Virus record (IMG/VR): IMGVR_UViG_3300037424_003032
Span: 1-34,519 of that record
From: a virus
Taxonomy: Duplodnaviria; Caudoviricetes
Length of the DNA stretch: 34,519 bases
Strand: one strand, 5' to 3'
A program made the translations under genes and the position numbers. The notes under the pieces are model-generated. The model saw only the letters and a program-made list of their open reading frames with translations, was not told the origin of the DNA and ran no database searches. Shown piece by piece: positions 1,502-28,631 of the stretch (position 1 is its first letter; each line of letters opens with the position of its first letter).

Positions 1502-1513
1502 TCCGACGTCGGA
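1502..1513. repeat. 12-bp palindrome TCCGACGTCGGA, copy at left edge of phage module
   Basis: Exact match, immediately beyond the late-operon terminator. Confidence 0.95.
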
Positions 1514-1546
1514 AACAAAAACAGGGCCCATTCAGGCCCTGTTTTG
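1513..1546 (-). terminator. Intrinsic terminator ending the minus-strand late operon (possibly bidirectional)
   Basis: AAAACAGGGCC-cattca-GGCCCTGTTTT stem directly after the stop at 1548, with T-runs on both strands. Confidence 0.8.
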
Positions 1547-1547
1547 C

Positions 1548-1892
1548 TTACGGCGTCAGCACCTTATCTAATATAGTGTTCAGCACAAACAACAGCACGG
1601 CGGAGGCGAACACCCACGCGGCGTTCTTGATGCTGTTGATATTTTTTTCTACTGTAACAAGTTTGTCCATCGCAAGTTCAAACTTGGTCACCAGGCCAGT
1701 TTTTGGATCCCCATTGCCTGTTAGGATTTTGTGGTCTCTCTCTTGCAGTTCTTTCATCCCAACAATTTCAGCGGCGCGAATTTGACAAACTGCGGCCACT
1801 CCTGGGGTTGTCTGTTTCGACATAGCTTCACCAAGGGCATTCTCCACTAGCCCCGGTAGCACATCTTTGATGGCTTCGATGACGTCGGACAT
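1548..1892 (-). CDS. Small phage coiled-coil protein with C-terminal TM anchor (holin/XhlA-like)
   Basis: GNG..GL motif, coiled coil, single C-terminal TM; AGGAG RBS; last gene of the tail operon. Confidence 0.6.
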   Translation of the reverse strand: MSDVIEAIKDVLPGLVENALGEAMSKQTTPGVAAVCQIRAAEIVGMKELQERDHKILTGNGDPKTGLVTKFELAMDKLVTVEKNINSIKNAAWVFASAVLLFVLNTILDKVLTP

Positions 1893-1970
1893 AACGATCT
1901 CCTGATTTATAAGATAGCGCTAAGGCGTTCGTGCTAATTCGAGGGCGGGCCCTTTACCTCACGGCCTCCC

Positions 1971-2390
1971 TTACACTAAAAGTAGAGCCGAGCCTGCGAT
2001 AATTGGCGCACTAACCGCAGCTCCCGCGTAATTGACTAATTTCCAGCCAAACAACGAGTTGGCCGGGATCGTGACCTGGTGTATATTGTCTGAGAAGTTA
2101 CCCCCCGCAGCCCCTAACGGGATGGTAATCAAGATGCTGGTTGCCACGTTATCAACCATCAAGATCATCTCTAGCCTCCCGCCAGCCGGTTGCGGTCCAT
2201 TTGTGCGAATAGTTGGGCTCTTGAAAACCACCGGCACGGCAGGCGAGAGAATGTTCGAGGCGCTCGAAAATAGTCCGGTGTACATCCCTGGAGCCATGTA
2301 GTAGGTAGCCCCAGCGGGGACCGTCTGGTTGTATCCATGACAGAACAGTACGTTGACGGCAACGATTTGATCGGGCTGTATGATTGTCAT
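1971..2390 (-). CDS. Small beta-rich virion/tail-fibre-associated protein
   Basis: GAGGA RBS; follows the fibre gene; beta-sandwich-like composition. Confidence 0.6.
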   Translation of the reverse strand: MTIIQPDQIVAVNVLFCHGYNQTVPAGATYYMAPGMYTGLFSSASNILSPAVPVVFKSPTIRTNGPQPAGGRLEMILMVDNVATSILITIPLGAAGGNFSDNIHQVTIPANSLFGWKLVNYAGAAVSAPIIAGSALLLV

Positions 2391-2404
2391 TTAGTCCTCG
2401 CTTT

Positions 2405-4144
2405 CTAGAATTCGTACTCGCAAGACAGGTTGACTGAATTGCCGCTGACCAACGTGGCAGGCATACCCTGGTACATAATCGTGCCTTGATAAATCCCGCG
2501 CATGTCAGCCGAGCGCAGAAAAGCAGCTACTGCGTACCGCGTGCTTCCCGCCTTGACCTGCCCCGCGGCGGCCTCAATTGCCGAACCTTCCGCGCCATCG
2601 TAATTGGCCGGTGTAACGGGCAGCGAAAAGTTCCAAAAACCATTGCCGAACGTGGTCGATGGCCCGGCTATTATTCTTGCCAGTACTATGATCGTACTTA
2701 CTTTGGGTATCCATTTGCCTACCAATGTGCCGTCTACAATGGCGGGCTGGGGATTGCTCTGGGAAGTCCACGCTATGCCAAAGTTGAACGATGACGGGTA
2801 GCCCTCGGGGTTGGCAATGTAGGACACGCGCGGATTAGTGATAGCTCCGGCCACGAGCAAGAAATCGGTGTTGGGCATAAGTGTCACAGTAGTGACCCCA
2901 GCGCTGTGCGAAGATGACCTTATAAAGCCATACTTGTCCGACCCACCATTTACACACAGGAATTTTGTACCCTTCCTGTACTTGGTCGTCAGGTCCCCTG
3001 GGGCCGTGAAGGAATGATTGCCAGTTCGCGTCAACACATCTTGGGCAGGCAGCCAACCAGAATACAGGTCTTGTGCCTGAGCGAAGTTGTCGGCGTGGTA
3101 CCCATCAAGCGTATCGGCGTCGCCACTCCCGGAACCAGGAATTCTGTACGAAGCGGTGATTTCGTCCCCTGCAAGCGGAGCCACCAGAAAGTCAAACAGG
3201 CCGGTTGTGGGATTGGTTTCAACCCAGTCTTCCGCTGTACCCTGCGTTTGTAGTTGTCCGTTCCGGTAGACTAAGAGTGAGCCCGTGGCATACTTGCTCT
3301 CAGAGACCTCGAAGGTGGCGTTTGTGCCATCAACCACTCCAACCAGAGAGCCGTAAGTGTCAGACACTCCGCCGGACTGATCGTAATGGATCACCGTGCT
3401 GCTGCCACCGCTTCCTGTGCCAATCTCTTCCTCGACGCCGTCTGAATCTTGCTTATAGACTTTGTGGTCATCTTTGGCGTATACCAGCAAAGTACCTACA
3501 TCTGGAGGATCGGGAGTTGCGGCGAGTTCAGGGAACGCACCTTGATCCAGCACTACATCTCCGGTTTGCCCGTTGACACTGAAAACCTTGTTATCAACTA
3601 AGGTTTCGTTGCCCCAAAAGTCTTTCCGGTACAACTTCCCGTCCGGGGGCTTTGTGTAGAAGACGATGAGGCTGGCGTCTGCGCTGTGGTCCGGTATCGC
3701 CATCAGCATTTGCAAGCTGAAACCGCCGGCAGCAAGTAGTGTTCCCGCCGGACCTTCTGGGCCATCTTCACCCTGCGGACCTTCAGGTCCAATTACGCCC
3801 TGCGATCCGGTTGGCCCAGCGGGTCCTTCTGGACCTTCCGGGCCTGTTGGACCAACTTCCCCCTGCGGGCCTTGCGGCCCGCGCGAGAATGCTACAAGAC
3901 TGCTTGGCTCACCCATTCCACCAACGATATGCGCGGTTGGAGTGCCGTTACTCCAGACTAATGTGACTTCCTGGCCGGCGACAGTGGCTAGGCCAACCGC
4001 CTTGACGTTACGCAGAATGGTGGAGCTGCCGCGTACCAACACGTTCACACGGTCTCCATCAACAGACTGTACAACGCCTCTGGTGGGCCTGTTGGTATCT
4101 TGGCTTTTGTTGTGTTGCTGAATGGCGGTAAATAAGTCGCTCAT
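2405..4144 (-). CDS. Tail fibre/spike protein with N-terminal OB-fold-like segment and collagen-like repeat
   Basis: [16 protein letters not shown]-terminus, 15 GXY triplets, [13 protein letters not shown] and [10 protein letters not shown] fibre motifs; ATGA overlap with upstream gene. Confidence 0.85.
3743..3880 (-). repeat. Collagen-like (Gly-X-Y)15 coding repeat
   Basis: [46 protein letters not shown], residues 89-134. Confidence 0.95.
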
Positions 4145-7100
4145 GGGACATAAACCTCTAAGCCTGCGTTGACATCAAAGTTTTCGCCATTGAAGCCGAA
4201 TACTACGCTTGAAGCCATGACGCCGATCTCTGTCTCTTCACCGGCGATTGTGATCACACCCGTATCTCCGGGTTGCAGAGCGGGGTGGAAGACAGTCTCC
4301 AAAGACCTTACGTCAGACCGCTGGCGAATCAACTCGATCACTTTTTCGCCATCAGCAACAAGGTCTTGAACAGTTTCGGCGTACATGGAATTGACAGTTT
4401 CAAATAGATTGCCGGCATCCTTCAGGAGAGCGAAATCGGCAATCTCGGCGATCTTGATCCCTTCCACGCGCACGCGAGACACCAGCTCGTCAACCTCTTC
4501 TTTTTGCTCGGAAATAACTATGTCTGGCAAGTTTCCGACGTCGGACATTGTCTTGTAGAAGAACAGACTGCCATCGGGTTCGGACCTGAAGTACACACGG
4601 CGGTTGCCGGTCAATTCGCCCAGAATGGACATGCCCTTTCCGCGCGTGCCAATCACAATGTCCGCCATCAGATCGTTCATCTCCGAGTACAAGAACCGCA
4701 TCGGCGGCAAGGTGGCGCCAAGGGGGTTGTGAGTAACAAATCCCTTATACTGGTAAGCTTCCACGGAGAACGTATCGCGGTAGAACACATGTAGCAGCTT
4801 GTGGTTCAGCCACACTGCAAAGCGGTTATCTTGAACAGAAACCCTCAAGACACCGAAGAGACGGTTGGTGAATCCTGGGTAGATCTTTTCTACCAGCACA
4901 AGGGTGTTGCCACTCATCTGGTACAGGGCCAGCGCGTTGTCTTCAACACACAGCAGGTACCCCTCGTCGAATTCACTCGACAACGGGATGGTTCCATAGA
5001 AACCAACCCCAATCCTGACTTGCTGACCAACCGGAACGGCCTTTGGGATGTGAATTTCGGCGATAAAGTCCTTTTTGCCATCGTCGATGTCCAACACTTT
5101 CCACGTGCTTCCAAGAACTGAATGAGATACCGTCAGGACATTGGTGTCAACCAGATACCTTTCCGTAATGCTGCCACCGGCCAAGACAAGCACGCGACGC
5201 AAGGCGTCCGCGAGGGTGATGTCTTCCTCGTGGCTGTAGAATTCGATTTCGTCGACATACAAATCAATGTCGTAATACTTGGACACCTTTGTCGGCTCTG
5301 TGTGGGTCGCTGCGGTAGTACCCATCTGTCCGCGATTTTCCAGGTAGATGCCATCTTTCAATACAAACTGCGTATCTTTATCCATGGTGTCTCTTGGGTC
5401 TGAAAAAATACGATACGCTGGGTCTTGGTATTGCGCGCCAACGGCCCATTCGTCTGACGGAGTTGCTGTCCATGAGCCATAATTTGTATCTCCAACATGG
5501 AGTTTCCAGTCATTTTTCCAGTTTGAAGGAAGCCAGTGAGTAGGCAGTGCTTGATTTGAAAATGCGTTGCTGTTTGGAAATGCGTGGCCCTTACCACCGC
5601 CAGAAACGATACAAGAAGCCTTGCAGTACGAATTCGCAGGTCTCGTACCCTTCAAAGTTACAGTTCTCGTGCTATCCCCTCCGGGCTGTCCTCCGCTGGC
5701 GCTGTAAAACCGGTTTTCGATATACGGGAATGGACCATAGGTTATTCCGTCTGGGTGAGCGCTGGGTTTGTCCAAGACAACCAATTCGGTCAAGATTTCG
5801 TCGTCAATCATGACAGTTTCGTCGCCGGCTGTAAAAATTCTGGCATCGTCAACACCCACAAAGGCCCATCCGCCCGCCTCGCCAAAACCTTCACACGGCG
5901 TATAGGGAGTGGCGCGATCCATAACAACGCAACCGTGACCACCGTCCTCGCCAGACCACGGCGACGTATCGCTGTAAGTAAAATTCATTGCAGTGGTCCA
6001 CGCGCTGGAAGTGTCGGCGCGCCACGATACCCGAATTGCGCCCTCCACGAAGCGAATCTGAAGCCATACAAGTGAATCCAGTGTAAGGCTGACAGAAGCC
6101 TGAGAAATCTGGGTCAGCACGCTGTTTTCCCATCGATACAACTTGATTCCCGAGCTACCGTTCACCTCTTTGCGACCATAGATAGCCACAATTCCGTTGT
6201 GTCCGCACATGTCGTCGTCAACGTCGGTGTATTCAAGCCCCAGACGAGCAGCAGCTTCCACTCTGCTTTCACGGCGATAGTTCAAGCCAACGCCAAAGCG
6301 AGGATTGCGATCTGCGTGAATATTGGCCTCGTTGTGGAAGCGAGCACGCATGACGCCGCCGCGCGAAGCGCGAGAAGCGGTGTAAAGCACGGCAAGCTCG
6401 TTCAGTCGAGTAGGCTTCAGGTACGATTCGGTACTACCAGCGCTGCCATTACCAAAGATTTCAATGGCATCTACATCGATATAACCAGATACGGGAGTGC
6501 CGTGAGTAACCTTGAATGTATGCGGGCCAGGTGTAAATTGCGGGCTAACATATTGACCTTGAACCTTGGTGGCGTTATAAGCATTTACGGTGGCAATCTT
6601 GACGCCGTCCACCCAGATGTCATGAAGTCCTCGGTCGGTAAATTTAGTGTATGTAAATATGAAACTTGTTCCGGCAAAATTGAACGATGCGTTTTCGGTG
6701 GTGTTAGCTGCGTTGTTGTAGTGAATGGTAGTGTTATAAGCACCTGCGGGCGTATCTGTGCCCCAGGTACCACTGTACACCCACGCGGCGTGGGTGTCGT
6801 CATACTTTCCAGCCAATTGATACCCAGACACGCCAACTTCCTCGAACTTGCCGTCTGCGCGAATGATTTTGCTCAAGTCGCCTGCGTAGCAAACGGTATA
6901 CGCTTGTGACGGAACGTAAATACCCTGGTCTGGAGACCACTGCGACAGACGCTTGGCAGTCAAGTTGGCAATGTGCACCGCCAGACCTTCGCCATTTCCG
7001 CGTGTGCGCAAAACACGGCTGACTTCGCCGGTCAGCACCTTCACCCACTCATCGTTGTAGGCAACTTCGATCTCAATGTGAGCGCCGCTACACAGGGCGA

Positions 7101-8187: not shown

Positions 8188-8269
8188 CCCGCACCTCCTT
8201 TGGCGAAAAATGTGGGTGCGGGATTCACCCCGCACGCTTCTTTTTGTGTTTTCCATGAGCGTGCGGGGT

Positions 8270-8640: not shown

Positions 8641-11600
8641 CTACCTCGTTACGCTAAATGAATCTGACAAACTATTGATCGAGCTGCGTTCCAGCTTTTC
8701 GATCATCTGGACCCAGTCCTCCACCATGCGACTGAAGACGGGAGCGTAACCGATCAACTTGCGCATGGCCGCCTCGTCTTTCTCGCGGCTCTGGGTAAAC
8801 TGGCGCATATTCTCGCCGTACTCGTGCTGGCTCTTGGCCATGTCGATCTGCAAAGCGAGTGAGCGTTTCGAGAATTCCAGTTGTTCTTCCTGGTGACGGC
8901 GCTGTTCTTTCTGCAACTGCATCTGAAGCTCGTGCAGTTCCACCGTTTCATCCTGGCGAAGAACTGTATTCTCACGCTCCATCTGGTAGAGCGCCTCGTA
9001 CTGCGCGCGCTGCCGCTCGATGTTTTCCTCTTCGATCGCGATCATTTGCTCGGTGTATTCGAGAGACTTCCTGTAACGCTCGTCTTCACGCTCCCACAGT
9101 TCTTCCTGGTTTTCGCGCAGGTTGTCTGTGTTTTGCGAGTTCAAGTTGTAGCTTGTGGTTTCCCGGTCGCGGCGCTTGATAAGTTGCGCGCGCTCGTAAC
9201 CGCTGGAGCGACGAATACCTTCGTCATAATCTTCCATCGACCAGCCATGAGACAGGTTGCTCATCTGGCTTTGGAAGTTCCATCCCTCACGCGTAAAGTC
9301 GCGCTGCATGAGTGAGGTTTCGTAGCCGAATGCCTGCTGCCAGCGATTGTTCTGGATGCCGGCCCCGCGTTGTTCGTCTTGCGCGGCCCAGTTCTCAAGC
9401 TGGAACTGGTGTTGCAGGTCCATGCGTCTCAGCGAGTAATCGAACTGGCCCATCTGGGAACCGAATTGCTGCGAGGTGATCTGGTCCTGGATGCCCCACG
9501 TGGCGTACATGTTGCTTTGGTTGGAGGCCATCTGGGACTGCTGAAGGCCAAAGGATTGCATCTGCTGGCCCCAGCGCTGATCGTTGAAGAACTGCTCGTA
9601 CCCCTGCATGCCGCCATTGACCAGGGCGCTTTCTGCGCCCTGAGAGCTAAAGGAAAGGCCCATCGAACGTAGGGTTTGCCCTGCCGTGAGAGAAGACGGC
9701 AGGCCCATCCGCTGCTGTGCGCCAAGGAGCACGCCGGAGATGTCGGTGGTGCCCATGCGCTGCCCGTCGTCCTGGAAGTACTGTAGGTTCCCCTGACCGG
9801 ACAATTGTCCGACGTCGGAAATTGCGTACAGGTTGCCGGAGAACATTTCGGACAGAAAATTGGCGTCCACCCCTCTGCTCACGGCCCCGCTGAGAGAGGC
9901 GAACGTGTCAGACATTGTGCCAGCGCCCAACCCTGCAACGTTGTTCGCAATGTTTGCGAGCTTCATGTTGATGCGCGGGGACTGTCCCTGCATCGTCTGA
10001 GCGAAGCCGGTAGCCTCCAGGTCGGTCATGTCTCGACCGTAGTCCATGCCGAAGCCGGACGCTACCTGAGAGAACGCCTGAGCGCTCGCCATGTGGCCAA
10101 GGCCGAAATTGTCGGCGAGCTGCGCCGCCGCGCGAGTGCCACCATCAAGATAGGGAGCGAACTGGGAGTACGCCTGCGACATCTTGGTTTGCTTGCGCAG
10201 CAACTCAACGCGCTCTTCTTCCGAGCTGGCGTTTACCCAATTGAGAGCTAGGTCGCTCCAGTCTTCCGAGCCTTCGGGAACACCTCTGAGAGAGGCGTAC
10301 TGAGACAACAGGCCCAACTGGTCTTTGTTGGTATCAAGCGAGATGCCAACCATCTGTTCGGCAATGCGCTTTTGACCAATGTCGTCAAGGCCGCCCATGC
10401 CAACTTGCATGCCACTCAGGATTTTCGCGCTTTCCTCTGGCTTGATCTGATATTTCGAGGCGATTTCGCGATTGAATTTAGATAACGGAATTGCTTGCTG
10501 TTCGGCAGGAGAGACGGCCAGAGACGACAAGGCGCCAGGAAATACTCCTTCCATGACTTGACCGAGCCAGCCGGACTGCATGATCTCAAGTTCGCTCTTA
10601 CCGGTGCTCTCGACTGCTTCCGTCAGGACGTCACCTTGCGCGCCCCATGGAGCGAAGGCGCCAGCGAGTTGCGCGAACCTGGATTGATTGGTTGCGTCCT
10701 CGCCGAAGAAGTCAAAGCCGGCAGATAGGACAGCAGCGCGTCCAACATTGCGCAGAGACCAACCGCTATCCCAGTCTTTGCCTGTTATTGCGTTGGCCGT
10801 CATACCGCCAATAAAAGGCGCTGCCGTAAGTGCGGCTACTCCAACGCCAATAGGGCCAGCAGCGGCAGCGGTGGCTCCACCAAGCGCCGTTGCGCCAATG
10901 CCAGCAGCCAGACCTGCGCCACCGCTGACCGCCAGGGTGTTACCAATTCCAGCGTATGCGCCACCGGCGAATTCTGCACCCAGCTCACCAAGAATGCCGT
11001 ACTGGCTGTAAGCCGCTTCGCCGGCGCGATCCTGGGCAATTGCCATACGAGCTGCGTAGCCAGGTGCGCCACCAGACACGCCGCCGTTTCCAAAAGCGGC
11101 CATCGGCGACATGTACGCTTGAGACGTACCGTATTGATCGGCGGTTTCAAGAACTTTGCCGCCCGTGTTCTGCCAGGCCATAGACATCATGAATTGCGCC
11201 ATCATGAAGCGGCCAACCGGCGACTGGTACGGAGAATGCTCGAACGGACCTTCTTCGCCTTCGCCGTCATCGCCGCCGCTGGTGCCGTAGCGCCCGCGTC
11301 CGCGTCCACCCCAGACGGCGCCGTCGCCGTAGCGATAAGAACGACCCTCGCCGGCAAACACGCCAGCGGGTCCGGCAGCAGCCTGGTCGACGCTACCAGA
11401 TGAGTTTATTAGATGCTCGCGAAGTTCACTGTCTTTAGCAGCCGCCTGGCTCAGTTCTTGCTTGTTCAGCCGGGCAGCATTGCTGTATCCAAAGTCGCCT
11501 GGACGTCCGGCGTATTCACCAACTGCGCGGAATCCGTCCATGTGTTGCTCTACGGCATCTTTAGCAACTTCCTGCGCTCTCCTGGCAACTTCCTTGGCCG

Positions 11601-14253
11601 CGACTGTATCGCCACCTTCTGCCTTGACACTTTTTTCGAGTGCCTCGATTTTCTTGTTGATAAGTTTGCTGACGCGCTCGCCCATCGTGGCGGCAGCCGA
11701 CAAGCCGGACATGCCTTCCAGGCCGCCCTGACCGTAAGCTTCCGCGAGGCTCTCACGCGCCCATGTGAGACCCATGCCAACTTCATCTTCACTGGCAGTC
11801 ACCTGACTGCCCAGACGATACTCACCGCCCACGATGTTGCGTTTATCGTCCATCCTTGGCGTGAATTCGCCCAGTTTGGACGAACGAGCGCCGCCAAGAG
11901 ACCTGAAGCTCAGGCTTTTCGCCATTTCCTTCAAGTCGTCGGTGTCAGTGCCGGTGATCGTGTTGCCTGGATTGAACTTGACTTCCTCGCGCTTATTTGC
12001 TTCTCGGCGCGCCTCAATCCTCTCGCGCGCCTCGTCCCAGCGAGCACCAGGCGTGTAAGTACCATCGACGTCCTCTGGATCGCCAGCGCCGACAATGGAA
12101 CCGACGAATCCTCCCTGGACGGGACGTAAGACCCTGGCTTGTTGTCGCCATTCTTCCATGGCGTTGGATTCAGTGCTTTCCTGCGGCGCTTCCTGGACCG
12201 GCTCCCGTACCGATTGTGGAAGAGTAGGTCGGCTGGGTTTGTACCCTACCGGATTGCGATCCTTCGTTCCGTAGGCAGCGTTGAATTCTTCAAGGGAAAT
12301 GTTTCCGTCTTGAAGGAGCTTTGATTGGTTCCAGCGCTCTCTCGACAGAGGCGATCCGAGAGATGCTTCTTTGTACGGAGACCAGGGGCCACCCTTCTCT
12401 TTCGAGTGGTGGTTGGACATGAGAACATTCCACGACTTCTGCTGTTCTGGCGTCATGCTCTCGTAAAGCTTGTCGAATTCCGGATCAGGCACAGCCCACT
12501 GGCCCTGGAACATCTCGCCATACGCAGGAACTTCGTCATCGAGCCTATTCAGGGCTGTTTGTGCTTCTCCGTCAGTTGGTATGCGATCCATGCCGGCGCG
12601 CTCCATGAACCACTCGGACGCTTTTTTGCCGTGAGGAGGAACGGTGACGGACGACTGGCGATTGGAAACCGGCTTTTTTGAGCTATTGCGACGTGGCTCC
12701 GGAAATTCCTCCATCGGCATCGGCGGAGCTTCAGGTGGCTCGTCGGAACCAGAACCGCCGGAACTGGACACTGGTCCAACCGGAGCTTGATTTTTTAGAC
12801 TTTGCAGGTATGCAGTTTCAGTAGGCGAGCTGACGCCCTGGTCACTTCTTGCTTGCAGCCTCGCAATTTCCTGAGCGGAGGTGCTGGGCTCTATCGGTGC
12901 TACTGGTTCAGCCGGCTGCGCCGGGGATTGTCTGACGTCGGACTTTCGCAAGGGCTGCGCAGGAATCACTTGTTCGGGACGTTCAAATTCCCGAACGCGA
13001 TTCTGAGCTTCGTTATACTGGCGACGACTTAACGGAACGAGATCGGGGTTATCTTCCTTAAACCGACCAGCAAAACCGGGTCTGACATTTCCTAGTGTAA
13101 GGCGCTCTTGCATTTGCTGGGTTTGATACGCAACCTGCGGCACGATCTCTGCCTGCGCCTCCAATTGAGTGCGAGCCGTTGCTATTGCAGCGCTGCGTTC
13201 ACTTAGATCGGCTTGCTGGGCCATCGAACCGGTCTTGAAAATGGTTCGATTGCCGGTTAGCTCGGTGTCATTTTCGTATGCTCCGTAGACCGGCTTGCCT
13301 CCGTTGTCGTGACGAAGCCTCGCCGCGGTCGTAGCGTCGGGAACATCAGTGGATTCGCGACGGAACAGGGCGTCAAGCACATCTTCGCCATCTCCACGTC
13401 CTTCTGGAAGAGAACTGCTAAGTGCGTCCGCTTCCTGCGAGTTCGCCCCCATAAAAGAGTTGTCTCCCTCGCCCCTGCCGCCGAGCAGGTTGCTATTCAA
13501 TCTGCGTAACCCAGATTCGACACGCTTGACAGACGGATCGCCGCTTATCAAGCCACCTTCTTTGGCGGCGATATAACGATCAAGATCGGCTCCAGTCAAA
13601 CTGACGGGCCGGTATGTTGAAGCAAGCCCCGCGTCGACAGCAGGAATAACGGCAGACGCATTGAGTGTGCCGTTTGGACCGATAAGGGGGGCGCCGCCGG
13701 GGGTGTAGAATTGAGTTGGAACTGTATTTTCGCCAACCGAGGAGCGAAGCTGGTTGTACCAGAAGTCTTCTCCACCGGCGGACTGCTCGGGCTTTGTGGC
13801 GTTGCGCGCATCGCCGGTGACGCCACCAAAGATCTGATTTCCAGCGAAGTTATCGAAGCCGCCCTTGGTGGGATCGTAGGTGCGGGCAGCCTGCATGACC
13901 TTCTCGACCCCAGTGGAAATCAATTCCATTGGGTCTACGCCAAGCTTGCCCTCACTGCGAACCTGAGCGGCTTGTAAAATAGACGGATAGAACGATCTAA
14001 CCAGCAAGCGCTCTGCGTCGCCAATGGTTTGTGGGACGATGTCCGGGTTTTTTATCAACCCCGTGGGAAATGGAAGAGAAGCGACGTCTGCGCCAGAGCC
14101 ACGTTCGCCGCCTGCGTACGCTTGAGAAATAACTTTAGCCAGCCCGTTTTGAATAGGAGCTGGCAGCGCTACACTATCCTGGACAAAAGCGTCCAGGTAT
14201 GATTGCAAAAAATCTGAATCGTAATCAGGGGAATTTTCGCGTCTCTTCTTCAT
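8641..14253 (-). CDS. Tape measure-type protein with long N-terminal extension containing a sigma70 region-2-like segment
   Basis: Longest ORF, located between tail chaperones and tail tip; Ala/Gly-rich hydrophobic block and C-terminal Gln/Glu coiled coil. Confidence 0.8.
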   Translation of the reverse strand: MKKRRENSPDYDSDFLQSYLDAFVQDSVALPAPIQNGLAKVISQAYAGGERGSGADVASLPFPTGLIKNPDIVPQTIGDAERLLVRSFYPSILQAAQVRSEGKLGVDPMELISTGVEKVMQAARTYDPTKGGFDNFAGNQIFGGVTGDARNATKPEQSAGGEDFWYNQLRSSVGENTVPTQFYTPGGAPLIGPNGTLNASAVIPAVDAGLASTYRPVSLTGADLDRYIAAKEGGLISGDPSVKRVESGLRRLNSNLLGGRGEGDNSFMGANSQEADALSSSLPEGRGDGEDVLDALFRRESTDVPDATTAARLRHDNGGKPVYGAYENDTELTGNRTIFKTGSMAQQADLSERSAAIATARTQLEAQAEIVPQVAYQTQQMQERLTLGNVRPGFAGRFKEDNPDLVPLSRRQYNEAQNRVREFERPEQVIPAQPLRKSDVRQSPAQPAEPVAPIEPSTSAQEIARLQARSDQGVSSPTETAYLQSLKNQAPVGPVSSSGGSGSDEPPEAPPMPMEEFPEPRRNSSKKPVSNRQSSVTVPPHGKKASEWFMERAGMDRIPTDGEAQTALNRLDDEVPAYGEMFQGQWAVPDPEFDKLYESMTPEQQKSWNVLMSNHHSKEKGGPWSPYKEASLGSPLSRERWNQSKLLQDGNISLEEFNAAYGTKDRNPVGYKPSRPTLPQSVREPVQEAPQESTESNAMEEWRQQARVLRPVQGGFVGSIVGAGDPEDVDGTYTPGARWDEARERIEARREANKREEVKFNPGNTITGTDTDDLKEMAKSLSFRSLGGARSSKLGEFTPRMDDKRNIVGGEYRLGSQVTASEDEVGMGLTWARESLAEAYGQGGLEGMSGLSAAATMGERVSKLINKKIEALEKSVKAEGGDTVAAKEVARRAQEVAKDAVEQHMDGFRAVGEYAGRPGDFGYSNAARLNKQELSQAAAKDSELREHLINSSGSVDQAAAGPAGVFAGEGRSYRYGDGAVWGGRGRGRYGTSGGDDGEGEEGPFEHSPYQSPVGRFMMAQFMMSMAWQNTGGKVLETADQYGTSQAYMSPMAAFGNGGVSGGAPGYAARMAIAQDRAGEAAYSQYGILGELGAEFAGGAYAGIGNTLAVSGGAGLAAGIGATALGGATAAAAGPIGVGVAALTAAPFIGGMTANAITGKDWDSGWSLRNVGRAAVLSAGFDFFGEDATNQSRFAQLAGAFAPWGAQGDVLTEAVESTGKSELEIMQSGWLGQVMEGVFPGALSSLAVSPAEQQAIPLSKFNREIASKYQIKPEESAKILSGMQVGMGGLDDIGQKRIAEQMVGISLDTNKDQLGLLSQYASLRGVPEGSEDWSDLALNWVNASSEEERVELLRKQTKMSQAYSQFAPYLDGGTRAAAQLADNFGLGHMASAQAFSQVASGFGMDYGRDMTDLEATGFAQTMQGQSPRINMKLANIANNVAGLGAGTMSDTFASLSGAVSRGVDANFLSEMFSGNLYAISDVGQLSGQGNLQYFQDDGQRMGTTDISGVLLGAQQRMGLPSSLTAGQTLRSMGLSFSSQGAESALVNGGMQGYEQFFNDQRWGQQMQSFGLQQSQMASNQSNMYATWGIQDQITSQQFGSQMGQFDYSLRRMDLQHQFQLENWAAQDEQRGAGIQNNRWQQAFGYETSLMQRDFTREGWNFQSQMSNLSHGWSMEDYDEGIRRSSGYERAQLIKRRDRETTSYNLNSQNTDNLRENQEELWEREDERYRKSLEYTEQMIAIEEENIERQRAQYEALYQMERENTVLRQDETVELHELQMQLQKEQRRHQEEQLEFSKRSLALQIDMAKSQHEYGENMRQFTQSREKDEAAMRKLIGYAPVFSRMVEDWVQMIEKLERSSINSLSDSFSVTR
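9808..9819. repeat. TCCGACGTCGGA palindrome (in tape measure gene, encodes SDVG)
   Basis: Exact match. Confidence 0.95.
12931..12942. repeat. One-mismatch palindrome copy TCTGACGTCGGA
   Basis: 11/12 match; encodes SDVR. Confidence 0.7.
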
Positions 14254-14620: not shown

Positions 14621-15045
14621 GGTTCGCCCTTGTCCTTTTGGCCAGGCAGCGCAGGACCCCAAGGGGGACACGATTCGCCAAGAGCCTTCCAGATTTCAGA
14701 GACCATCTTGGGTGGCATCGACGCCAGCACCGCCTCGATCTCCACGACCGTTGCGTCGTCGTTCAAAATTGGCTCGCCACCTTCAGCGACAGGCTTGGTG
14801 CTGTCTTTCGGGACAGTCGTGCCTCCGAAGAGCAGGGCAATCTCGCGCATCGCGATTTCCTCTGTAGTGATCGGACGCGGCGCGCGTGCGCCGTCCTGAA
14901 AGATCACAAAGCGGTCGCGCGCCACGAACTGAGACATTGTCAGTTCTGCGCCCATATCGATGGGCTTGAAAGTCCAGGTCCATGTCGGTTCTTTCTCGAA
15001 CGCATGAGCAACTGGGGTCAAGAGAGCGTAGTTACCAAAGTTCAT
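14593..15045 (-). CDS. Tail assembly chaperone (gpG-like)
   Basis: Between tail tube and tape measure; GGAGG RBS before ATG 15045 (MNFGNY); slippery A-runs before the stop. Confidence 0.75.
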   Translation of the reverse strand: MNFGNYALLTPVAHAFEKEPTWTWTFKPIDMGAELTMSQFVARDRFVIFQDGARAPRPITTEEIAMREIALLFGGTTVPKDSTKPVAEGGEPILNDDATVVEIEAVLASMPPKMVSEIWKALGESCPPWGPALPGQKDKGEPKKAPSKKR

Positions 15046-15088: not shown

Positions 15089-15104
15089 TTTCCGACGTCG
15101 GAAA
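15089..15104. repeat. Extended 16-bp palindrome TTTCCGACGTCGGAAA, intergenic
   Basis: Exact; a partial copy TTCCGACGCC lies at 15078-15087. Confidence 0.95.
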
Positions 15105-19382: not shown

Positions 19383-19398
19383 TTTCCGACGTCGGAAA
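19383..19398. repeat. Extended 16-bp palindrome TTTCCGACGTCGGAAA, intergenic, abutting scaffold RBS
   Basis: Exact; a partial copy TTCGACGTC follows at 19399-19407. Confidence 0.95.
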
Positions 19399-21731: not shown

Positions 21732-21743
21732 TCCTCAACAAAT

Positions 21744-21773: not shown

Positions 21774-21790
21774 CCATCGGAATGGTCAGG

Positions 21791-22066: not shown

Positions 22067-22085
22067 TGTTCTCCATATTTGTCAA
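22057..22085 (-). promoter_or_regulatory. Sigma70-type promoter TTGACA-17-TAAAAT with extended -10 TG
   Basis: -35 at 22085-22080, -10 at 22062-22057. Confidence 0.65.
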
Positions 22086-22117
22086 GTGTAATGTACAATT
22101 GGATAGCAATTGTTCCT

Positions 22118-22321
22118 CTAGACATCATTGTGGTCTACCTTGAACCGGTTGTCTGTACGGGTAAAACCAGTCGATTTGTAAACTACGAGAGCCTGACTGT
22201 CGTAGATGCGACCAAGCGTGCCGCCGCACCCTTCGTGGTGTGTCGGATGGGGAGCTGTCATCGCGTGTTCGATGACGACTACCTTCTCGCATTTCCGACA
22301 TCGGAAAGTGTATTCTGCCAT
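22118..22321 (-). CDS. FmdB-family zinc-ribbon protein
   Basis: YTFRCRKC ... HEGCGGTLGRIY ... YKSTGFTRTD; AGGAGG RBS. Confidence 0.85.
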   Translation of the reverse strand: MAEYTFRCRKCEKVVVIEHAMTAPHPTHHEGCGGTLGRIYDSQALVVYKSTGFTRTDNRFKVDHNDV

Positions 22322-22872: not shown

Positions 22873-24352
22873 GCGATCTCGTCGTGCGCTTGCGACGATT
22901 GCGGTAGTTTGGCAGAGGTATTTGCTTCACGGCTGCCTCTTGGCCATTCGAGTACCGTTTCAGATACGCAATCATCGCCAGGGTCATCACCAAGTCTTGC
23001 TTGGCATTCTTGTCGTCGTAGCGGTCGTAAGTTCCGAGCTGCGTGGTCAAACCCTCAATGCGCGGAAAGCGCAAGTCTTGATTGGCCAAAGACATCGATA
23101 GCGAGTTTACGAGCACGTCCTTTAGGTGCCCGAAGCTCAACGCGTCTACAACCAGGCCGTAGTTCTCGAAGCCCAGCTCATCGATAGCCATTTGCGTGCC
23201 GGTGGTGTCAACACCTTTGGAAATTGGCCGGTAAAGCTCGGCTGCATACTGGTAAGCAGAAAGGAATGGCTTGTAAGAGCCGCGCCCGCTGATCCAGTTG
23301 AAGTACACGAGCGTTGCCGGCTTGACACTGATGTCGAAGACCATAACGCACGGCGAGTTGCGGCGCGGGGGACTGTCTACGCCAGGATCGCCAGCCATGA
23401 TGTGCAGGTGATCCTCGTTGGGCGGTACTTCGTAGTGCACTACGCCAACGCGGGGCCATTCGTCCATGATGTAGCCCGGGCGAGGCTTGCCGGTTTCTGG
23501 GCGAAGCGCTTCTTCCATTACGTCGTTCAAGTTCGCGTCCGTGCAGGAGCGAATGTGATTGAGCGGGAAAGTGCTTAGGCCCCAGTCTGGGAAGATAGCG
23601 CGCATTTCGATGTCGGCGTATTCCGCAGGGAAAGAAGCCTCCATCAGCTCGATCTGTTCTTTGGTCAGGCGCTTGTTGTCCCAGGTCGTGACGCGCATAG
23701 AGATGAAATTGCGCAGCGTCTTTGCAGTTGCTCTTGGATGACCGGGCAAGCCTTGCTCGAAGCGCTCGCGAAACCAGTCCGCAGGGGTGGGAGTTCCCGT
23801 TACGTCCAGGCGAGCCATACGCGGGGAGCCGTCAATGCGAGTGCCGCGCAAGCGTCCACGAAAAACCTTGATCGCTTCGCCGTCTTCGTCCAATCCGGCT
23901 TCGTCGTAGTTGATCCGGTCGTACTCGTGACCTCGGATGAACTTTGCGCCAAGGCCCGCAGTGCGGAATTCAAAGGTGGACAGGTTGGCGAAGTTCAGGA
24001 TCGGATAAGGCCGCAGGGTCTTGTCCAGGACAAAGCGGTTCAGACGTGGATGAGTTTCCAGCCAGGCGTCGACCATCTCAAACGCCAGCTCTGCCTGCTT
24101 GGCCGTTACCGAGGCGTTCAGCGCTTTGAAGCCAGGGTAGGTGAGGCAGTTCATCAAATAGGACGAAGAAATGATGGCTGTTTTACCAGAACCAATCCCG
24201 GCCACCAGGGTGGTGTTTTTGATCGGGAGGTAATGGAACACGTACTGGTAATCTAGGGGGTCCCAATCCCAATACCATTGCGTAGCCAAGTGAAAGCCGC
24301 CATTGACGGCGGCTTTCAGCATTGCTTCGTCAGAACTTGTAAGTTTAATCAT
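22859..24352 (-). CDS. terL: Terminase large subunit
   Basis: Walker A AGIGSGKT, Walker B RINYDEA, coupling motif TGTP, nuclease AGDPG and C-terminal QDLVMTLA; start set at ATG 24352. Confidence 0.9.
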   Translation of the reverse strand: MIKLTSSDEAMLKAAVNGGFHLATQWYWDWDPLDYQYVFHYLPIKNTTLVAGIGSGKTAIISSSYLMNCLTYPGFKALNASVTAKQAELAFEMVDAWLETHPRLNRFVLDKTLRPYPILNFANLSTFEFRTAGLGAKFIRGHEYDRINYDEAGLDEDGEAIKVFRGRLRGTRIDGSPRMARLDVTGTPTPADWFRERFEQGLPGHPRATAKTLRNFISMRVTTWDNKRLTKEQIELMEASFPAEYADIEMRAIFPDWGLSTFPLNHIRSCTDANLNDVMEEALRPETGKPRPGYIMDEWPRVGVVHYEVPPNEDHLHIMAGDPGVDSPPRRNSPCVMVFDISVKPATLVYFNWISGRGSYKPFLSAYQYAAELYRPISKGVDTTGTQMAIDELGFENYGLVVDALSFGHLKDVLVNSLSMSLANQDLRFPRIEGLTTQLGTYDRYDDKNAKQDLVMTLAMIAYLKRYSNGQEAAVKQIPLPNYRNRRKRTTRSHASR

Positions 24353-24830
24353 CGCCAGGCACAGGTTCGGGCTGCGGGAAGTGCTGCGCCCGGAATTCCT
24401 TGATAACGTCAGAAGCGTAACCCTTGGATACACTCAAGGCGTGTGCCACTTCGGTTGGACCAGGGACAAATTCGTCAGTTGCATTTTGCGCCAGGTAAGC
24501 CCAGATTTTCTGGTAAATCTCGCTCTGCTCGCGTGGCGTTCGTTTTTTTCGCGGTTCACCTCTACTGCCGGACACAACGTTGTATCCATTCTCTGTAGTG
24601 AGAGTTTTCAGCGCTTTTATACACTCCCTTTCATATCGATCCAGCTCCCACGGCTCACAATAGAGTAATACATACCGCTTGAAGTTCATTTCACCGTAAT
24701 ACCTAAGGGCACGCTCCAAGGCGGCAGAACCATTGTGAATTGCATTCATTCTGCGTTTTACGTCTATTCCCTGACCAATATATTTTGCGCCATCGAGAAG
24801 ATTTTCCAGTGCATATATTCCAGCTATCAT
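24345..24830 (-). CDS. GIY-YIG endonuclease with C-terminal HTH
   Basis: GIYALENLLDGAKYIGQ, conserved R, E and GYN; HTH PGPTEVAHALSVSKGY. Confidence 0.9.
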   Translation of the reverse strand: MIAGIYALENLLDGAKYIGQGIDVKRRMNAIHNGSAALERALRYYGEMNFKRYVLLYCEPWELDRYERECIKALKTLTTENGYNVVSGSRGEPRKKRTPREQSEIYQKIWAYLAQNATDEFVPGPTEVAHALSVSKGYASDVIKEFRAQHFPQPEPVPGDD

Positions 24831-25786
24831 TGCAAAATCTCCTGGACTAATTCATCTTGTTGCGGCGCAAATGTTGGTTTTTTCGCACGAAATTCTTTGA
24901 TGGTATCGACAATCACAGAACCCTTTGTTATTCCAAGCTCGCGAGCCACCTCGGACGGACCGGGAATGAATTCGTCTGTCGAATGTTCTGTCAGATATTG
25001 CCAGATCGCGTCGCGTTTTTCAGTGTTTACCATTCGCTCGTTCGGGTGTTCGGGCGTTCGTTCACCATCGAACGAACGAACAAGCTCCTTGGGGAGAGAC
25101 CTCTTCACGAGCTTCATCTGGTTTTCGACAATCTGCTTGTCGGGTGACTTGTCCCAGCTATCGCGCAAGCCCTGCTCCCAGTCCGCGTATGCGTTGCGGT
25201 ACTTGATGTCTGCGGCGTCGCGCACGTTGCTCCAGCGAGCTAACATTGCGCCGATCACCATGCCGGCCACGGCAGCCACGATGGATGCGCCGGCGCCAAT
25301 GGTCACTGCCAGCACGCCGCTAAAATCAATGCCGACGTTGAAGCCATTGAACGAGACGCCCAAGCCGGCCACAATCGAAATCGCCAGCATGACCACCTCG
25401 CCGACCACCAGCCACCAGGTAGAGACCTTGATGGTGTTGAGCTTCTCGTCGTCCGACAGGTTGCGATTGTCGGATTCGGCACGAATAGCAGCAAAGACCA
25501 CGATGCCAAACTCGATAGCCAGGATCGCCAGGACCGCCTCGGCCCTGCGCGTGGTCAGGTTTGCACCGGCTGACGCCAGGAAGAACATCTCGGCTGTACG
25601 AAGCGCAGCCAGGCCGATGGCGCCAATTGCCTGCAACAAGATCAGAACCAACTGCCAGCCAATCGTCTGCCAGATGGCTATGGACGCTTTTGCCGGTGGC
25701 GGTACCTGGGCTGTGTAGCGCTTCTTGTAGTTTTCCCATGCAACCAGTTCGGATTGCGCGGTTTGTGCAAATAAATCAGGATTCAT
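24827..25786 (-). CDS. Four-TM membrane protein with C-terminal HTH domain
   Basis: GGAGG RBS before ATG 25786; four hydrophobic helices; PGPSEVARELGITKGSV HTH. Confidence 0.8.
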   Translation of the reverse strand: MNPDLFAQTAQSELVAWENYKKRYTAQVPPPAKASIAIWQTIGWQLVLILLQAIGAIGLAALRTAEMFFLASAGANLTTRRAEAVLAILAIEFGIVVFAAIRAESDNRNLSDDEKLNTIKVSTWWLVVGEVVMLAISIVAGLGVSFNGFNVGIDFSGVLAVTIGAGASIVAAVAGMVIGAMLARWSNVRDAADIKYRNAYADWEQGLRDSWDKSPDKQIVENQMKLVKRSLPKELVRSFDGERTPEHPNERMVNTEKRDAIWQYLTEHSTDEFIPGPSEVARELGITKGSVIVDTIKEFRAKKPTFAPQQDELVQEILQ

Positions 25787-26115
25787 TTTGCCTCCAGTAA
25801 ATCTCCGACGTCGGACATGATGGGCCAGCCCAGTTCGTCGTATTTGTATCCGTAGTAGCGCGAGAGCAGCCTGCGAAATTCCTCGGCTGTAATCTTGACC
25901 GCCTCGGCCAGGGTGTGATGCCAGCGGCAAAGCGAGATCACATTCTCGATCACATCCGGTCCGCCGGTGCCAACCGGGATAATGTGGTGGCCATCCAAGC
26001 CTCCGCGGCAGCCGTCTTTGTGCCAGATACCGTACAGACATACGCCATCGCGGGCTCTTGCTTTATCGGTAATGGTTCTGTCAACTAAACGCGTGTGCTT
26101 TGGGGCGGCGGGCAC
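25783..26115 (-). CDS. HNH endonuclease (possibly packaging-associated)
   Basis: RDGVC..., DGHHII, ENVISLCRWHH; GGAGG RBS. Confidence 0.9.
   Translation of the reverse strand: MPAAPKHTRLVDRTITDKARARDGVCLYGIWHKDGCRGGLDGHHIIPVGTGGPDVIENVISLCRWHHTLAEAVKITAEEFRRLLSRYYGYKYDELGWPIMSDVGDLLEAK
25804..25815. repeat. TCCGACGTCGGA palindrome (end of HNH gene, just upstream of TM-HTH gene RBS)
   Basis: Exact match; encodes SDVG. Confidence 0.95.
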
Positions 26116-26569: not shown

Positions 26570-26574
26570 GGTTC

Positions 26575-26970
26575 TTAACCAGTAACTGCGGGCAACTGGG
26601 CCGGCTCATCCAGGTCGAAGAAGTCGAGGCCAATCGCTTTGACGTCAAGCACAGCTTCCTCGATGAGCTTGTCGGCCAGCTCGGCGGTCATCGGAATCTT
26701 GTATTTGCCAGCAACGCTCATGACAAACATAACGGCAGCCTGTTTCTTTTTGGCGCCTTCTTCCGCGGACCAAGCCGGAGACTGTTCCAGCCACTTCACC
26801 GCGGTGGCCGCCTGCGATTTCATGAAGTCCCATTGGGCCACAGAAGTCTTGGATTCCAGGTACATCTTGACGATGTTGACACCATAGGCGGCAACTGCGG
26901 TCACTATCGCGCCTAGTGCAAAGACGAGATTTGCAACCATTTCGGGGGTAATAAAGTCGTTCAATTCCAT
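26575..26970 (-). CDS. Phage holin, LL-H family
   Basis: N-terminal TM, AVKWLEQ, GAKKKQAA, IEEAV; AAGGAG RBS. Confidence 0.85.
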   Translation of the reverse strand: MELNDFITPEMVANLVFALGAIVTAVAAYGVNIVKMYLESKTSVAQWDFMKSQAATAVKWLEQSPAWSAEEGAKKKQAAVMFVMSVAGKYKIPMTAELADKLIEEAVLDVKAIGLDFFDLDEPAQLPAVTG

Positions 26971-27069
26971 GCTGTGCTCCTTGTTTTTTGATGACGCGAG
27001 AACTTAATTAACTTATCTACTTTCTATTAAGTAATCTATTAATCTACTCTTCGCGTTTGACGCCCTGTG

Positions 27070-27098
27070 ATTGTAGCTCATTTGTTCCGGTATGTCAA
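27070..27098 (-). promoter_or_regulatory. Promoter of the morphogenesis operon, TTGACA-17-TACAAT
   Basis: Near-consensus elements with 17-bp spacer, about 100 bp upstream of the holin. Confidence 0.8.
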
Positions 27099-27105
27099 GG
27101 TTATG

Positions 27106-27164
27106 AACCGTATGGTTTTCAACTCGTCCACTTCTCTCACGGCTAACTTGCCAACCGAATGGTT
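27106..27164. promoter_or_regulatory. Two operator-like sites AACCG(T/A)ATGGTT at 27106-27117 and 27153-27164
   Basis: Quasi-palindromic 12-mers, 11/12 identical, at divergent promoters. Confidence 0.55.
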
Positions 27165-27250
27165 CGACGATATGCTTACAGGTATCCACAAGCACATTGG
27201 AAGGTTAAAGCGCGACTGCCCTCCGTTTCCCACAGAGGGCAGTCTGTTGT
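27148..27250 (+). ncRNA. Candidate sRNA unit 1 (promoter TTGCCA-17-TATGCT plus 10-bp hairpin 27214-27244)
   Basis: Promoter geometry and GACTGCCCTC/GAGGGCAGTC stem; no RBS-led ORF downstream of the promoter. Confidence 0.4.
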
Positions 27251-27315
27251 ATCCAAGTGGACCTATGCCTACTGAATAATCAAAGTTCAGCCGGCATTAC
27301 CTCAAACGGGCGAGG

Positions 27316-27466
27316 GTTTACAAAACTGTTCGTTGACTTTCCACTTTGCTGCTTGTATTATGGTGTTGCATATTGTTTCTTTGACAGATTGGGAAATCTG
27401 TCGGCCAGCCGCCCCGCTAATTCCCCACTGGCATGGGGGTCCTCCAGCGAGGGCGGTTGGCTTTTC
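27316..27466 (+). ncRNA. Candidate sRNA unit 2 (promoter TTGACT-17-TATTAT, two hairpins, T4)
   Basis: GACAGATT/AATCTGTC hairpin, then GCCAGCCGCCC/GGGCGGTTGGC stem ending in TTTT. Confidence 0.55.
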
Positions 27467-27489
27467 AATAATCAAGTAAAATACCCTAC

Positions 27490-27768
27490 ATGGAACAACC
27501 AGAAGATAAGCCAAAAACTACCGGCGGGCTGTCAAAGACTTCGCCAAGAAACACCGGTGGGCTTCCAAAAACATCATCCTTGTCTAAGCGTGATTTTCCA
27601 CTTACTCAGGTAGAGCTATATGCTTACTTTGTTGTGCTTGCAATGGTAGTTCTATCTGGCCTCGTGATACCCCAACGGATACTTGACGAGTATGAAATGG
27701 CATTTCTGCTGTTGGTCGTGCTGCCGTTCTTGGCCTGGTCTGGCCGGATAATTCTAAAGTCAGGCTAG
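27490..27768 (+). CDS. Hypothetical two-TM membrane protein
   Basis: 92 aa, duplicated TGGLxKTS motif, two TM helices; no clear RBS. Confidence 0.45.
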   Translation: MEQPEDKPKTTGGLSKTSPRNTGGLPKTSSLSKRDFPLTQVELYAYFVVLAMVVLSGLVIPQRILDEYEMAFLLLVVLPFLAWSGRIILKSG

Positions 27769-27903
27769 TTTACAAATCTGTTCGTTGACTTTTCACTCCG
27801 CAGTCCGTAAGATATAGGCACCACGCATGCAAATGCGATGGGATGTAGACAGGAACAATACCTGCCGGCCCGCGCCCCGCTCCCCTGCGGGCGTTGGTTT
27901 TTA
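27768..27903 (+). ncRNA. Candidate sRNA unit 3 (promoter TTGACT-17-TAAGAT, three hairpins, T5)
   Basis: 30-bp promoter block is 28/30 identical to unit 2; CGCAT-GCAA-ATGCG GNRA hairpin; terminator-like end. Confidence 0.55.
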
Positions 27904-27944
27904 ATAAAGCAAAGGCTGGCAGTGTGGATACCACATCCCGCGAG

Positions 27945-28052
27945 TGGACAATCTGAGCCTTACTTTTGTATAATATGTATGCACCAGAGCGAGGCCATTG
28001 CGACCTCGCTCCTCAACCATAGGGCTTGCGCGGCAACGCAAGCCCTTACTCT
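27945..28052 (+). ncRNA. Candidate sRNA unit 4 (TGGACA-18-TATAAT, two strong hairpins)
   Basis: GAGCGAGG/CCTCGCTC and AGGGCTTGCG/CGCAAGCCCT stems. Confidence 0.4.
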
Positions 28053-28177
28053 TCCGGGCGGAATGCGTCAGCTAATAGTTTCATCGTCCAGACAATCAGC
28101 AACCATTGGCCAACAAGCATCCCTGCCAGGAAAACAATGATGTAGTCTGTCATTGTTACCTCCATATTCTAGGGCGG

Positions 28178-28381
28178 TTAACGATAGGCGGCGCGAATAT
28201 CAACGCGCTCATAGCCACGGCTCATGAACTGCTCTCGAATTGTTTCAGGCGTCAATTCGAGGACTTCGACCAAAATCTCGAACCAGTCGGAGTGAACGAA
28301 TTCCACTACGTCCGCCTGGAACTCTGGGTTATCCCAGTCCTGAACTGCTTTGAGCAATATTGCACCAAGCAATCTGTTCAT
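28178..28381 (-). CDS. Small phage-type hypothetical protein
   Basis: LLGAILLKAVQDW ... FVHSDWF pattern that I recall from small prophage proteins; AAAGGA RBS. Confidence 0.75.
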   Translation of the reverse strand: MNRLLGAILLKAVQDWDNPEFQADVVEFVHSDWFEILVEVLELTPETIREQFMSRGYERVDIRAAYR

Positions 28382-28412
28382 TATGTTTCCTTTCTACGGC
28401 ATCACCGCAAAC

Positions 28413-28453
28413 AAAAAAGGCCCAGCACACCTGTTTTTGTGTGCTGGGCCTTT
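28413..28453 (-). terminator. Leader terminator (attenuator) upstream of the 67-aa gene
   Basis: 15-bp stem AAAGGCCCAGCACAC/GTGTGCTGGGCCTTT with T6 on the minus strand. Confidence 0.8.
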
Positions 28454-28557
28454 GCCAGAAAAAAAACCCAAGCACACATGATCAAAACAACGTACAACTT
28501 ATTATGATCTGTGCGTCTTGGGCAACTGATGTGGCAGCCCAAATGCAGCTTAATCTA

Positions 28558-28587
28558 ATTATACAATTTTATGAATTAAATTGTCAA
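28558..28587 (-). promoter_or_regulatory. Consensus promoter TTGACA-18-TATAAT
   Basis: Both hexamers perfect, in AT-rich context. Confidence 0.75.
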
Positions 28588-28617
28588 TTAATAACTTGCC
28601 ATCTTTTCAAAAGTCAT

Positions 28618-28631
28618 TTCCGACGTCGGAA
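28618..28631. repeat. TTCCGACGTCGGAA palindrome at right edge of phage module
   Basis: Exact 14-bp palindrome about 30 bp upstream of the -35 box. Confidence 0.95.

Follow-up and report, generated by a model that had tools for sequence, protein, structure and literature searches.

Evenly spaced palindromic sites across a family of temperate phages and a candidate protein that may read them

Short words dispersed over mobile or chromosomal DNA are known from several systems. Cluster O mycobacteriophages, such as Corndog, carry more than 30 genome-wide copies of a short inverted repeat with a variable centre, a 17-bp dyad found within and between genes, mostly away from promoters and absent from the host, for which a dimeric binder has been proposed but no reader or function assigned (PMC4351075, 2015). 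On RK2, the 16-bp operator OB is dispersed over the mobile element and bound by KorB, a CTP-dependent sliding clamp that slides up to 1.5 kb and represses promoters together with KorA (PMC11790492). ParB-parS and Noc-NBS are chromosomal systems with 16-bp palindromes, in which CTPase-dependent spreading starts from a few sites and specificity is set partly by residues in a helix after the helix-turn-helix (HTH), such as G201 in ParB (PMC7383237). Finally, Cluster A stoperators number more than 20 across a temperate phage genome; they are asymmetric 13-mers oriented along transcription, located in promoters and short intergenic spaces and bound by a monomeric repressor (PMC9283540). Here, we analyse IMG/VR virus record IMGVR_UViG_3300037424_003032 (Duplodnaviria; Caudoviricetes), a stretch of 34,519 nucleotides referred to in its entirety as the window, over which a 12-mer palindrome recurs, together with the phage family to which it belongs; the reader of these sites is probably f45, a phage protein encoded just before DnaB.

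The array of this family shares with Cluster O the many dyads that occur genome-wide, within and between genes and not in the host, and with KorB-OB the dispersed palindromic operators, the 16-bp dyad being found across the family. The word itself is different, with a 6-N4-6 rather than 7-N3-7 architecture, and, whereas Cluster O phages are described as lacking an integrase, encoding a protein with a ParB-like domain and carrying repeats that are denser at one end, the phages studied here are integrase-bearing prophages (5 of 5 family records) with evenly spaced arrays. Unlike ParB, Noc and KorB, f45 has no CTPase domain: the ParB/Srx domain PF02195 was found in none of five records, including the complete G415, and the ParA ATPase PF13614 in none of the same number, four of them incomplete. 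The sites are not promoter-linked, and, rather than forming centromere-like clusters, are numerous and under-dispersed across whole phage genomes; unlike the stoperator, the site is a dyad. The array acts like the Cluster O dyads and KorB-OB but departs from the ParABS, KorB and stoperator systems in defining features. Literature searches returned no specific account of the word, of the phages that carry it or of a phage array together with its reader. What appears to be new is a putatively clamp-less candidate reader whose residues covary with the bases of the sites.

The exact 12-mer TCCGACGTCGGA starts at positions 1502, 4534, 9808, 15091, 19385, 25804 and 28619 (n = 7 in the whole window); one-mismatch copies lie at 12931 and 22294, and two-mismatch copies are lacking from the window. 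An order-2 Markov model predicts 0.002 exact copies, and nine copies were reached in 0 of 100 shuffles of the window, in full agreement with an earlier reading made from the sequence alone (hereafter, the sequence-only reading), which had listed these copies and the same expectation. The gaps of 2.2-5.3 kb that it gave are likewise real and are more regular than expected, with a coefficient of variation (CV) of 0.29 compared to about 0.88 under random placement (P = 0.0006), in a test where site 12931 was included by hand, its score on the family matrix being only 7.3 compared to 16.5-27.7 for the other eight sites. The partial copies at 1878/1881, 15078 and 19399 are present but score below zero on this matrix, and its statement that intergenic copies are the longest applies to three of the four (15091 and 19385, 16 bp; 28619, 14 bp) but not to 1502, with 12 bp only.

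All three exact in-gene copies encode Ser-Asp-Val-Gly (SDVG), at residue 1238 of a tail protein, residue 1479 of the likely tape measure protein and residue 101 of the HNH open reading frame (ORF) 25783-26115. Four SDVG peptides were seen against 0.21 expected, and in three of the four the codon choice reproduces the palindrome exactly (P = 0.006 each); under synonymous shuffles, 0.017 exact in-gene copies are expected rather than three (maximum 1 in 300 shuffles). Because, in addition, other residues stand at the aligned places in relatives, selection acts on the DNA, as the sequence-only reading had proposed, and the word is kept within genes at the expense of the protein sequence. Conservation of the peptide was rejected as the explanation given that the aligned residues differ among relatives, except for one ThiF site common to 5 of 6.

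In the relatives, the word is a conserved family trait, with the consensus (T)TTCCG-AYRT-CGGAA(A) derived from 130 sites. It occurs, as TTTCCG-AYRT-CGGAAA or a lineage variant, 13-38 times per relative along the whole length of the genome and mostly within genes; matrix sites number 38 in 66 kb of G004, 30 in G002, 29 in G001, 26 in G008 and 23 in G005. Near-complete relatives span 60-75 kb and share a gene order in which the repressor is followed, across a divide, by f127, f44, f45, DnaB, a nuclease and AAA_24, then by the late module on the other strand and by a second early region with the small terminase, a ubiquitin-like cluster, primase and integrase. Capsid relatives (57-80% identical) come from viral records and from genomes whose titles name Anaerolineae, Chloroflexia and, for a single bin, Deltaproteobacteria, and the relatives of f45 carry the names Chloroflexi and Brevefilum; none of the conclusions draws on the unpublished genome G046. 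The hosts of the family, including that of the window, are likely to be members of Chloroflexota.

The word belongs to the phage rather than to the host. Strict matches fall inside the prophage in 9 of 10 cases in the 5.2-Mb genome of G007, on the phage contig in 24 of 25 cases in G008 and inside the element in 7 of 7 cases genome-wide in G156, and matrix sites number 30 in the 54.3-kb prophage versus none in 43.6 kb of flank in G007, and 7 versus none in 80.7 kb of flank in G156. Loose matches to TTCCG-N4-CGGAA outside the element number 8 in G007, compared to 9 genome-wide for the control, and 15 in G006, compared to 5 for the control, with two family-like ones on contig C405 among the matches listed. 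A HIP1-like host-wide repeat was accordingly rejected, the word being at chance level in the host DNA of G007, G008 and G156; this comparison covers the host genomes of relatives, rather than the window's own host. Both of the tests that the sequence-only reading had named against itself, equal density in the host and lack of conservation in relatives, therefore came out in its favour.

Even spacing is a property of the family as well. The CV is 0.29-0.65 (P = 0.0002-0.01) in 7 of 7 records, where only the portions of G008 and G002 that carry sites were counted, and 0.43-0.59 (P ≤ 0.024) in all six further records; untrimmed G008 (CV 1.11) is not under-dispersed because of an 18.5-kb gap. The tail block of G004, which is coding throughout, has gaps of 1.3-2.4 kb with a CV of 0.18, the other tail blocks giving 0.36-0.65. 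In eight records, 140 of 189 sites lie within ORFs, and nine, compared to 6.7 expected, fall no more than 100 bp from a promoter-like site (P = 0.22). Separately, five tandem sites with a 31-bp period, that is, three helical turns, were seen in G005 only, in a large intergenic region next to AT-rich DNA (L139:11889-12024), and may represent an origin or nucleation array.

The 18.5-kb gap of G008 and a 7.6-kb gap of G002 consist of cargo, much of it low in GC, including restriction and transport genes. Because the flanks of the window resemble such cargo and the array spans the early genes in relatives, the outer sites of the window most likely mark borders between backbone and cargo rather than the ends of the element. 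The sequence-only reading had the array marking both ends, which is not supported: the array continues through the early and replication genes of near-complete relatives, internal low-GC cargo is site-free as well, and the record is cut short, given that contigs of its likely source run extend beyond it by 208 bases on the left and 2278 on the right. Its observation that the flanks are free of sites is real but weak when taken alone (7.3 kb, 2.4 sites expected, P(0) = 0.09).

The candidate reader, f45, is a protein of about 290 residues, present in every joined element whose sequence includes the operon (6 of 6) and in 5 of 5 additional records; it has 272 relatives at E ≤ 0.001 and was found in 2 of 401 genomes of the phylum. 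Sequence searches against Pfam, PHROGs, NCBIfam and the PDB gave nothing significant and no family name. Its predicted structure, with a mean predicted local distance difference test score (pLDDT) of 91.9 (89.9 for the domain alone), begins with two long helices, continues with a domain made of an HTH and a helical bundle, and ends in a hairpin and a helix. The structural matches spanning this domain are the Raf1 N-domain (Z 5.5), KorB (Z 5.1 over 96 residues with a root-mean-square deviation (rmsd) of 3.4, and Z 4.8) and Spo0J (Z 4.6; 88 residues, rmsd 2.8); the top Foldseek match is P1 ParB (E = 0.026), a viral fold library gave no match at E < 0.001, and the language-model neighbours are DUF3102, ParB-HTH and PF49 at 0.91. 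The modelled fold, which aligns weakly with the DNA-binding domain of KorB, weakly suggests that f45 holds a ParB/KorB-type DNA-binding domain without the CTPase clamp. A further two candidates were set aside as readers: the membrane-HTH gene of the window (24827-25786), which is absent in G004, G005, G008, G409, G156, G413 and G416, all with arrays, and f36, for which neither a family nor a usable atlas match was found.

Covariation between f45 and the sites was compared over 30 elements, many of which show only one or two sites. De novo site words include TTTCCA-GCGC in G409, TTCCT in G416, TTCAG in G413 and G414, TTTTCG in L171-173 and L189, and AATCCG in L178, L186, L187 and L194; one automatic pick (L185) was spurious. 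Residue 147 of f45 is Glu or Asp in 28 of the 30 elements, whose half-sites have G at base 6; in the remaining two, G409 (Thr147) and G416 (Met147), this G is found in only 4 of 38 and 16 of 60 half-sites, respectively, with A or T dominating. These two proteins are 35% identical and are not sisters on the tree. Of 768 class-invariant columns in 11 proteins, small terminase and primase not among them, only 3 depart in both elements; for the four proteins with at least 19 comparison elements, the number is one column of 89, namely, f45 147. At the neighbouring position, replacement of Arg146 by Lys or Cys (L172, L189 and L173) accompanies C to T at half-site base 4, one normal site in L171 having been removed by a filter. 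Residues 146-147 open the second helix that follows the predicted recognition helix and, judged by the order of helices rather than by residue-level alignment, likely lie in the region that holds G201 in ParB.

We therefore put forward, at somewhat less than even confidence, a scheme in which the palindrome is a word of this phage family at which f45 docks, marking and organizing the phage DNA; provided that f45 is the reader, physical marking seems moderately better favoured than control of transcription. The protein would be made from the early operon on the far side of the repressor (f127, f44, f45, DnaB) and would sit, presumably as dimers, on sites repeated about every 2-3 kb over the phage genome. 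Without a clamp, f45 would not slide, so that coverage would depend on closely and evenly spaced sites in the DNA itself, the arrangement that is seen. The bound dimers might bridge one another or recruit a partner, be it a nuclease, a helicase or a packaging step, possibly through the long N-terminal helices, and phage DNA would be set apart from host DNA during lytic growth; the place of the gene before DnaB and after f44, a likely nuclease by motif although without a family match, points to lytic replication. In the phage of the window, the f45 gene would lie in the missing part. A more specific version, in which a clamp-less ParB derivative and its lattice of sites constitute self-marking, with DNA tagged every ~2 kb and the words set by a residue-base code at 146-147, is doubtful, if possible.

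Several observations weigh against this proposal. Sites outside ORFs are in excess (26%, or 49 of 189, versus 10% of the DNA), which a lower cost between genes would explain, and site gaps of 15-18 kb are tolerated in G008 and G415, so that a strict coverage model is limited. The fold match of f45 is weak, with every Z below 6, Raf1 in first place and no Foldseek E below 0.001; profile comparison with 22 Chloroflexota ParB proteins gave a probability of 0.6%, and HTH_ParB matched 1 of 65 f45 members, at E = 0.036. Moreover, f45 is absent from the window, its tie to the nine window sites being drawn from the family. The covariation consists of two events at residue 147 and about two at 146; base 4 is still C in G414 (Phe146) and G415 (Ser146), none of the f45 residues matches the change of C to A at base 5 in G413 and G414 (TTCAG), and the number of departures in f45 of G409, 6 of 43, is not above that in G007 or G008 (7). 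In the AATCCG clade, too, the site variant has no matching f45 residue, whereas the single repressor seen there (L178) does differ (Thr52Ser).

Because of the tolerated gaps and the intergenic excess, one rival stays alive, namely, that f45 reads the sites but acts as a KorB-like transcriptional repressor or roadblock damping phage operons from many positions, which we regard as unlikely. KorB is the nearest DNA-binding fold match to f45 and silences genes from OB sites (PMC11790492); many of the 49 sites outside ORFs are near gene starts, a site recurs in four genomes where f44, which precedes f45, begins or immediately before that point, as autoregulation would give, and window site 28619 adjoins a consensus promoter. 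However, the sites show no promoter enrichment and are regularly spaced inside an 8-kb tail gene, f45 belongs to a likely lytic early operon apart from the repressor, and long-range silencing by KorB, according to the same account, needs the CTPase clamp, which was not found for f45. Of the options offered by the sequence-only reading, the parS-like one comes nearest, although without ParA or the clamp.

The general claim of that reading, binding sites for a dimeric protein, is in keeping with the element specificity, the DNA-level selection and the dyad shape, but stoperator silencing, self-marking by the terminase and GACGTC methylation are each argued against. Silencing of the prophage by the XRE-type immunity repressor f43, bound to the sites as stoperators, is improbable. 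This protein is encoded in the same elements, its recognition helix is fairly conserved, as is the site, and differs in G409, G413, G415 and L178, all with variant sites, and Cluster A mycobacteriophages provide a precedent (PMC9283540). Nevertheless, the helix GVAHTTIDRIL is identical in G004 and G416, which have different sites (G416 has a second repressor-like gene), f43 of L170 has an Arg56 change with a normal site, no site lies in the repressor-f127 switch region of four genomes, and the known stoperators, as that report describes them, are asymmetric, oriented and intergenic. L173, with its change at f45 residue 146 and T at base 4, has a repressor helix near-identical to that of L175.

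Recognition by a host protein, or a DNA or RNA structure such as a hairpin, recombination site or methylation target, is quite improbable as the source of the word. Perfect palindromes do occur in some lineages, and four sites of the G156 element separate one cargo gene from the next, as expected of cassette borders. Yet complete pairing of the arms is limited to 4 of 29 (G416), 5 of 28 (G414) and 9 of 29 (G413) sites, which argues against a hairpin or terminator; lineages differ in the GACGTC core, contrary to what an ACGT or GACGTC methylation target would show; 14-16 bp is short for a tyrosine-recombinase site; and the word is lacking from host DNA. Selective packaging through recognition of the sites as self-marks by the small terminase f24, which carries an HTH and matches phrog_2538, would suit sites that cover the whole packaged genome but is very improbable given that the G156 element keeps seven sites with no small terminase or virion gene, unless this element is a helper-using satellite.

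For Cluster O-like dyad arrays, the family supplies a named candidate reader and natural pairs of site and protein variants, and the one-residue prediction is open to an electrophoretic mobility shift assay without phage culture. If docking by f45 is true, the array would exemplify genome coating without a sliding clamp and would offer a small set of orthogonal 16-bp protein-DNA pairs; the more doubtful self-marking version would be a hard-wired alternative to CTP-driven spreading of ParB and would supply a mechanism for unexplained phage dyad arrays. In host genomes, the word can be used to delimit these prophages, and it separates the old backbone from newly gained cargo.

Two further elements of the family genomes deserve description. 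The G156 element (G156:C2:18000-52100; L207, L202 and L203) is a 34-kb integrated derivative of the phage family, running from integrase to repressor, that lacks all virion genes, the small terminase, DnaB and primase but retains f45, the repressor and its seven sites; it is filled with restriction-type cargo, resembles L182 and L183, and is possibly a satellite or defence island. The second is a cluster at G004:C1:56782-61091 (L137/L138), with equivalents in G001, G002, G005, G007, G008, G413 and even the virion-less G156, that encodes a small ubiquitin-like protein with a Gly-Gly terminus, likely E2-type and JAB-type protease proteins and a ThiF/E1 enzyme (Pfam ThiF; PADLOC E1-E2), and appears to be a phage-borne operon for ubiquitin-like conjugation. 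The genes of the two terminase subunits are 16-20 kb apart, that of the small one (G004:C1:56060-56713 and equivalents) being located in the second early region.

The window itself corresponds to one half, with the lysis, packaging and tail genes, of the genomes of a temperate phage family that measure 60-75 kb. Its late module (1548-26970, minus strand) encodes holin, HNH, GIY-YIG, large terminase, portal, metallophosphoesterase, major capsid, tail tube, likely tape measure, tail and fibre proteins; f45, the repressor, the small terminase, integrase and replication genes were not found in the window. The left flank (1-1391, plus strand; GC 0.35), with a membrane protein and an S-adenosylmethionine methyltransferase, is likely cargo, and the right flank (28757-34519, minus strand), with a TnsA-like nuclease, ResIII helicase, N6/N4 methyltransferase and a DarT-DarG fusion, is likely defence cargo; both are site-free. 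Neither the 27-28.6 kb region nor the left flank has a nucleotide or protein match among the fetched relatives.

The sites, listed without strand, are distributed over this half as follows. The leftmost exact 12-mer (1502-1513) is intergenic, just past a terminator-like hairpin that closes the late operon, at the border of low-GC DNA; at this border (about 1490-1550), a sibling variant exists as a second contig of similar depth in the source run, differing at 1512-1519. The exact copy at 4534-4545 lies within the gene of the 1371-residue tail protein, where two relatives have ISGG or IAGG at the aligned place, and that at 9808-9819 within the gene of the 1870-residue likely tape measure protein, where the peptide is not conserved in relatives; the weak one-mismatch site at 12931-12942, in the same gene, encodes SDVR. 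Perfect 16-bp palindromes stand between the tail-tube gene and the next gene (15089-15104; ATG at 15045, GGAGG) and between the metallophosphoesterase and likely scaffold genes (19383-19398). The site with the ACAT core and 16-bp arms (22292-22307) is located at the overlap of the DUF2227 and zinc-ribbon genes, the same place as in G001, G002 and G007, and the exact copy at 25804-25815 occupies the last codons of the HNH gene, whose product ends differently in relatives. The 14-bp palindrome at 28618-28631, at the defence-cargo border, precedes by ~30 bp a sigma70-type promoter (28587-28558, minus strand) that matches at 12 of 12 positions and is followed by a strong terminator-like hairpin ~100 nt on, so that 28587-28416 (minus strand) might encode a small RNA, although an Rfam scan of 26.9-28.8 kb gave no match at gathering score.

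Nearby, a 30-nt direct repeat (93%) at 27316-27345 and 27768-27797 carries promoter-like hexamers, followed in each case by a similar GC-rich hairpin leader, and the assembly of the source run branches at 27847-27876. The GIY-YIG ORF (24345-24830, minus strand), which overlaps the start of the terminase gene, and the membrane protein (24827-25786, minus strand) have similar C-terminal HTH-like tails. Finally, the DarT and DarG macrodomain of the right flank are joined in a single ORF of 394 residues (33335-34519, minus strand; PADLOC, NCBIfam).

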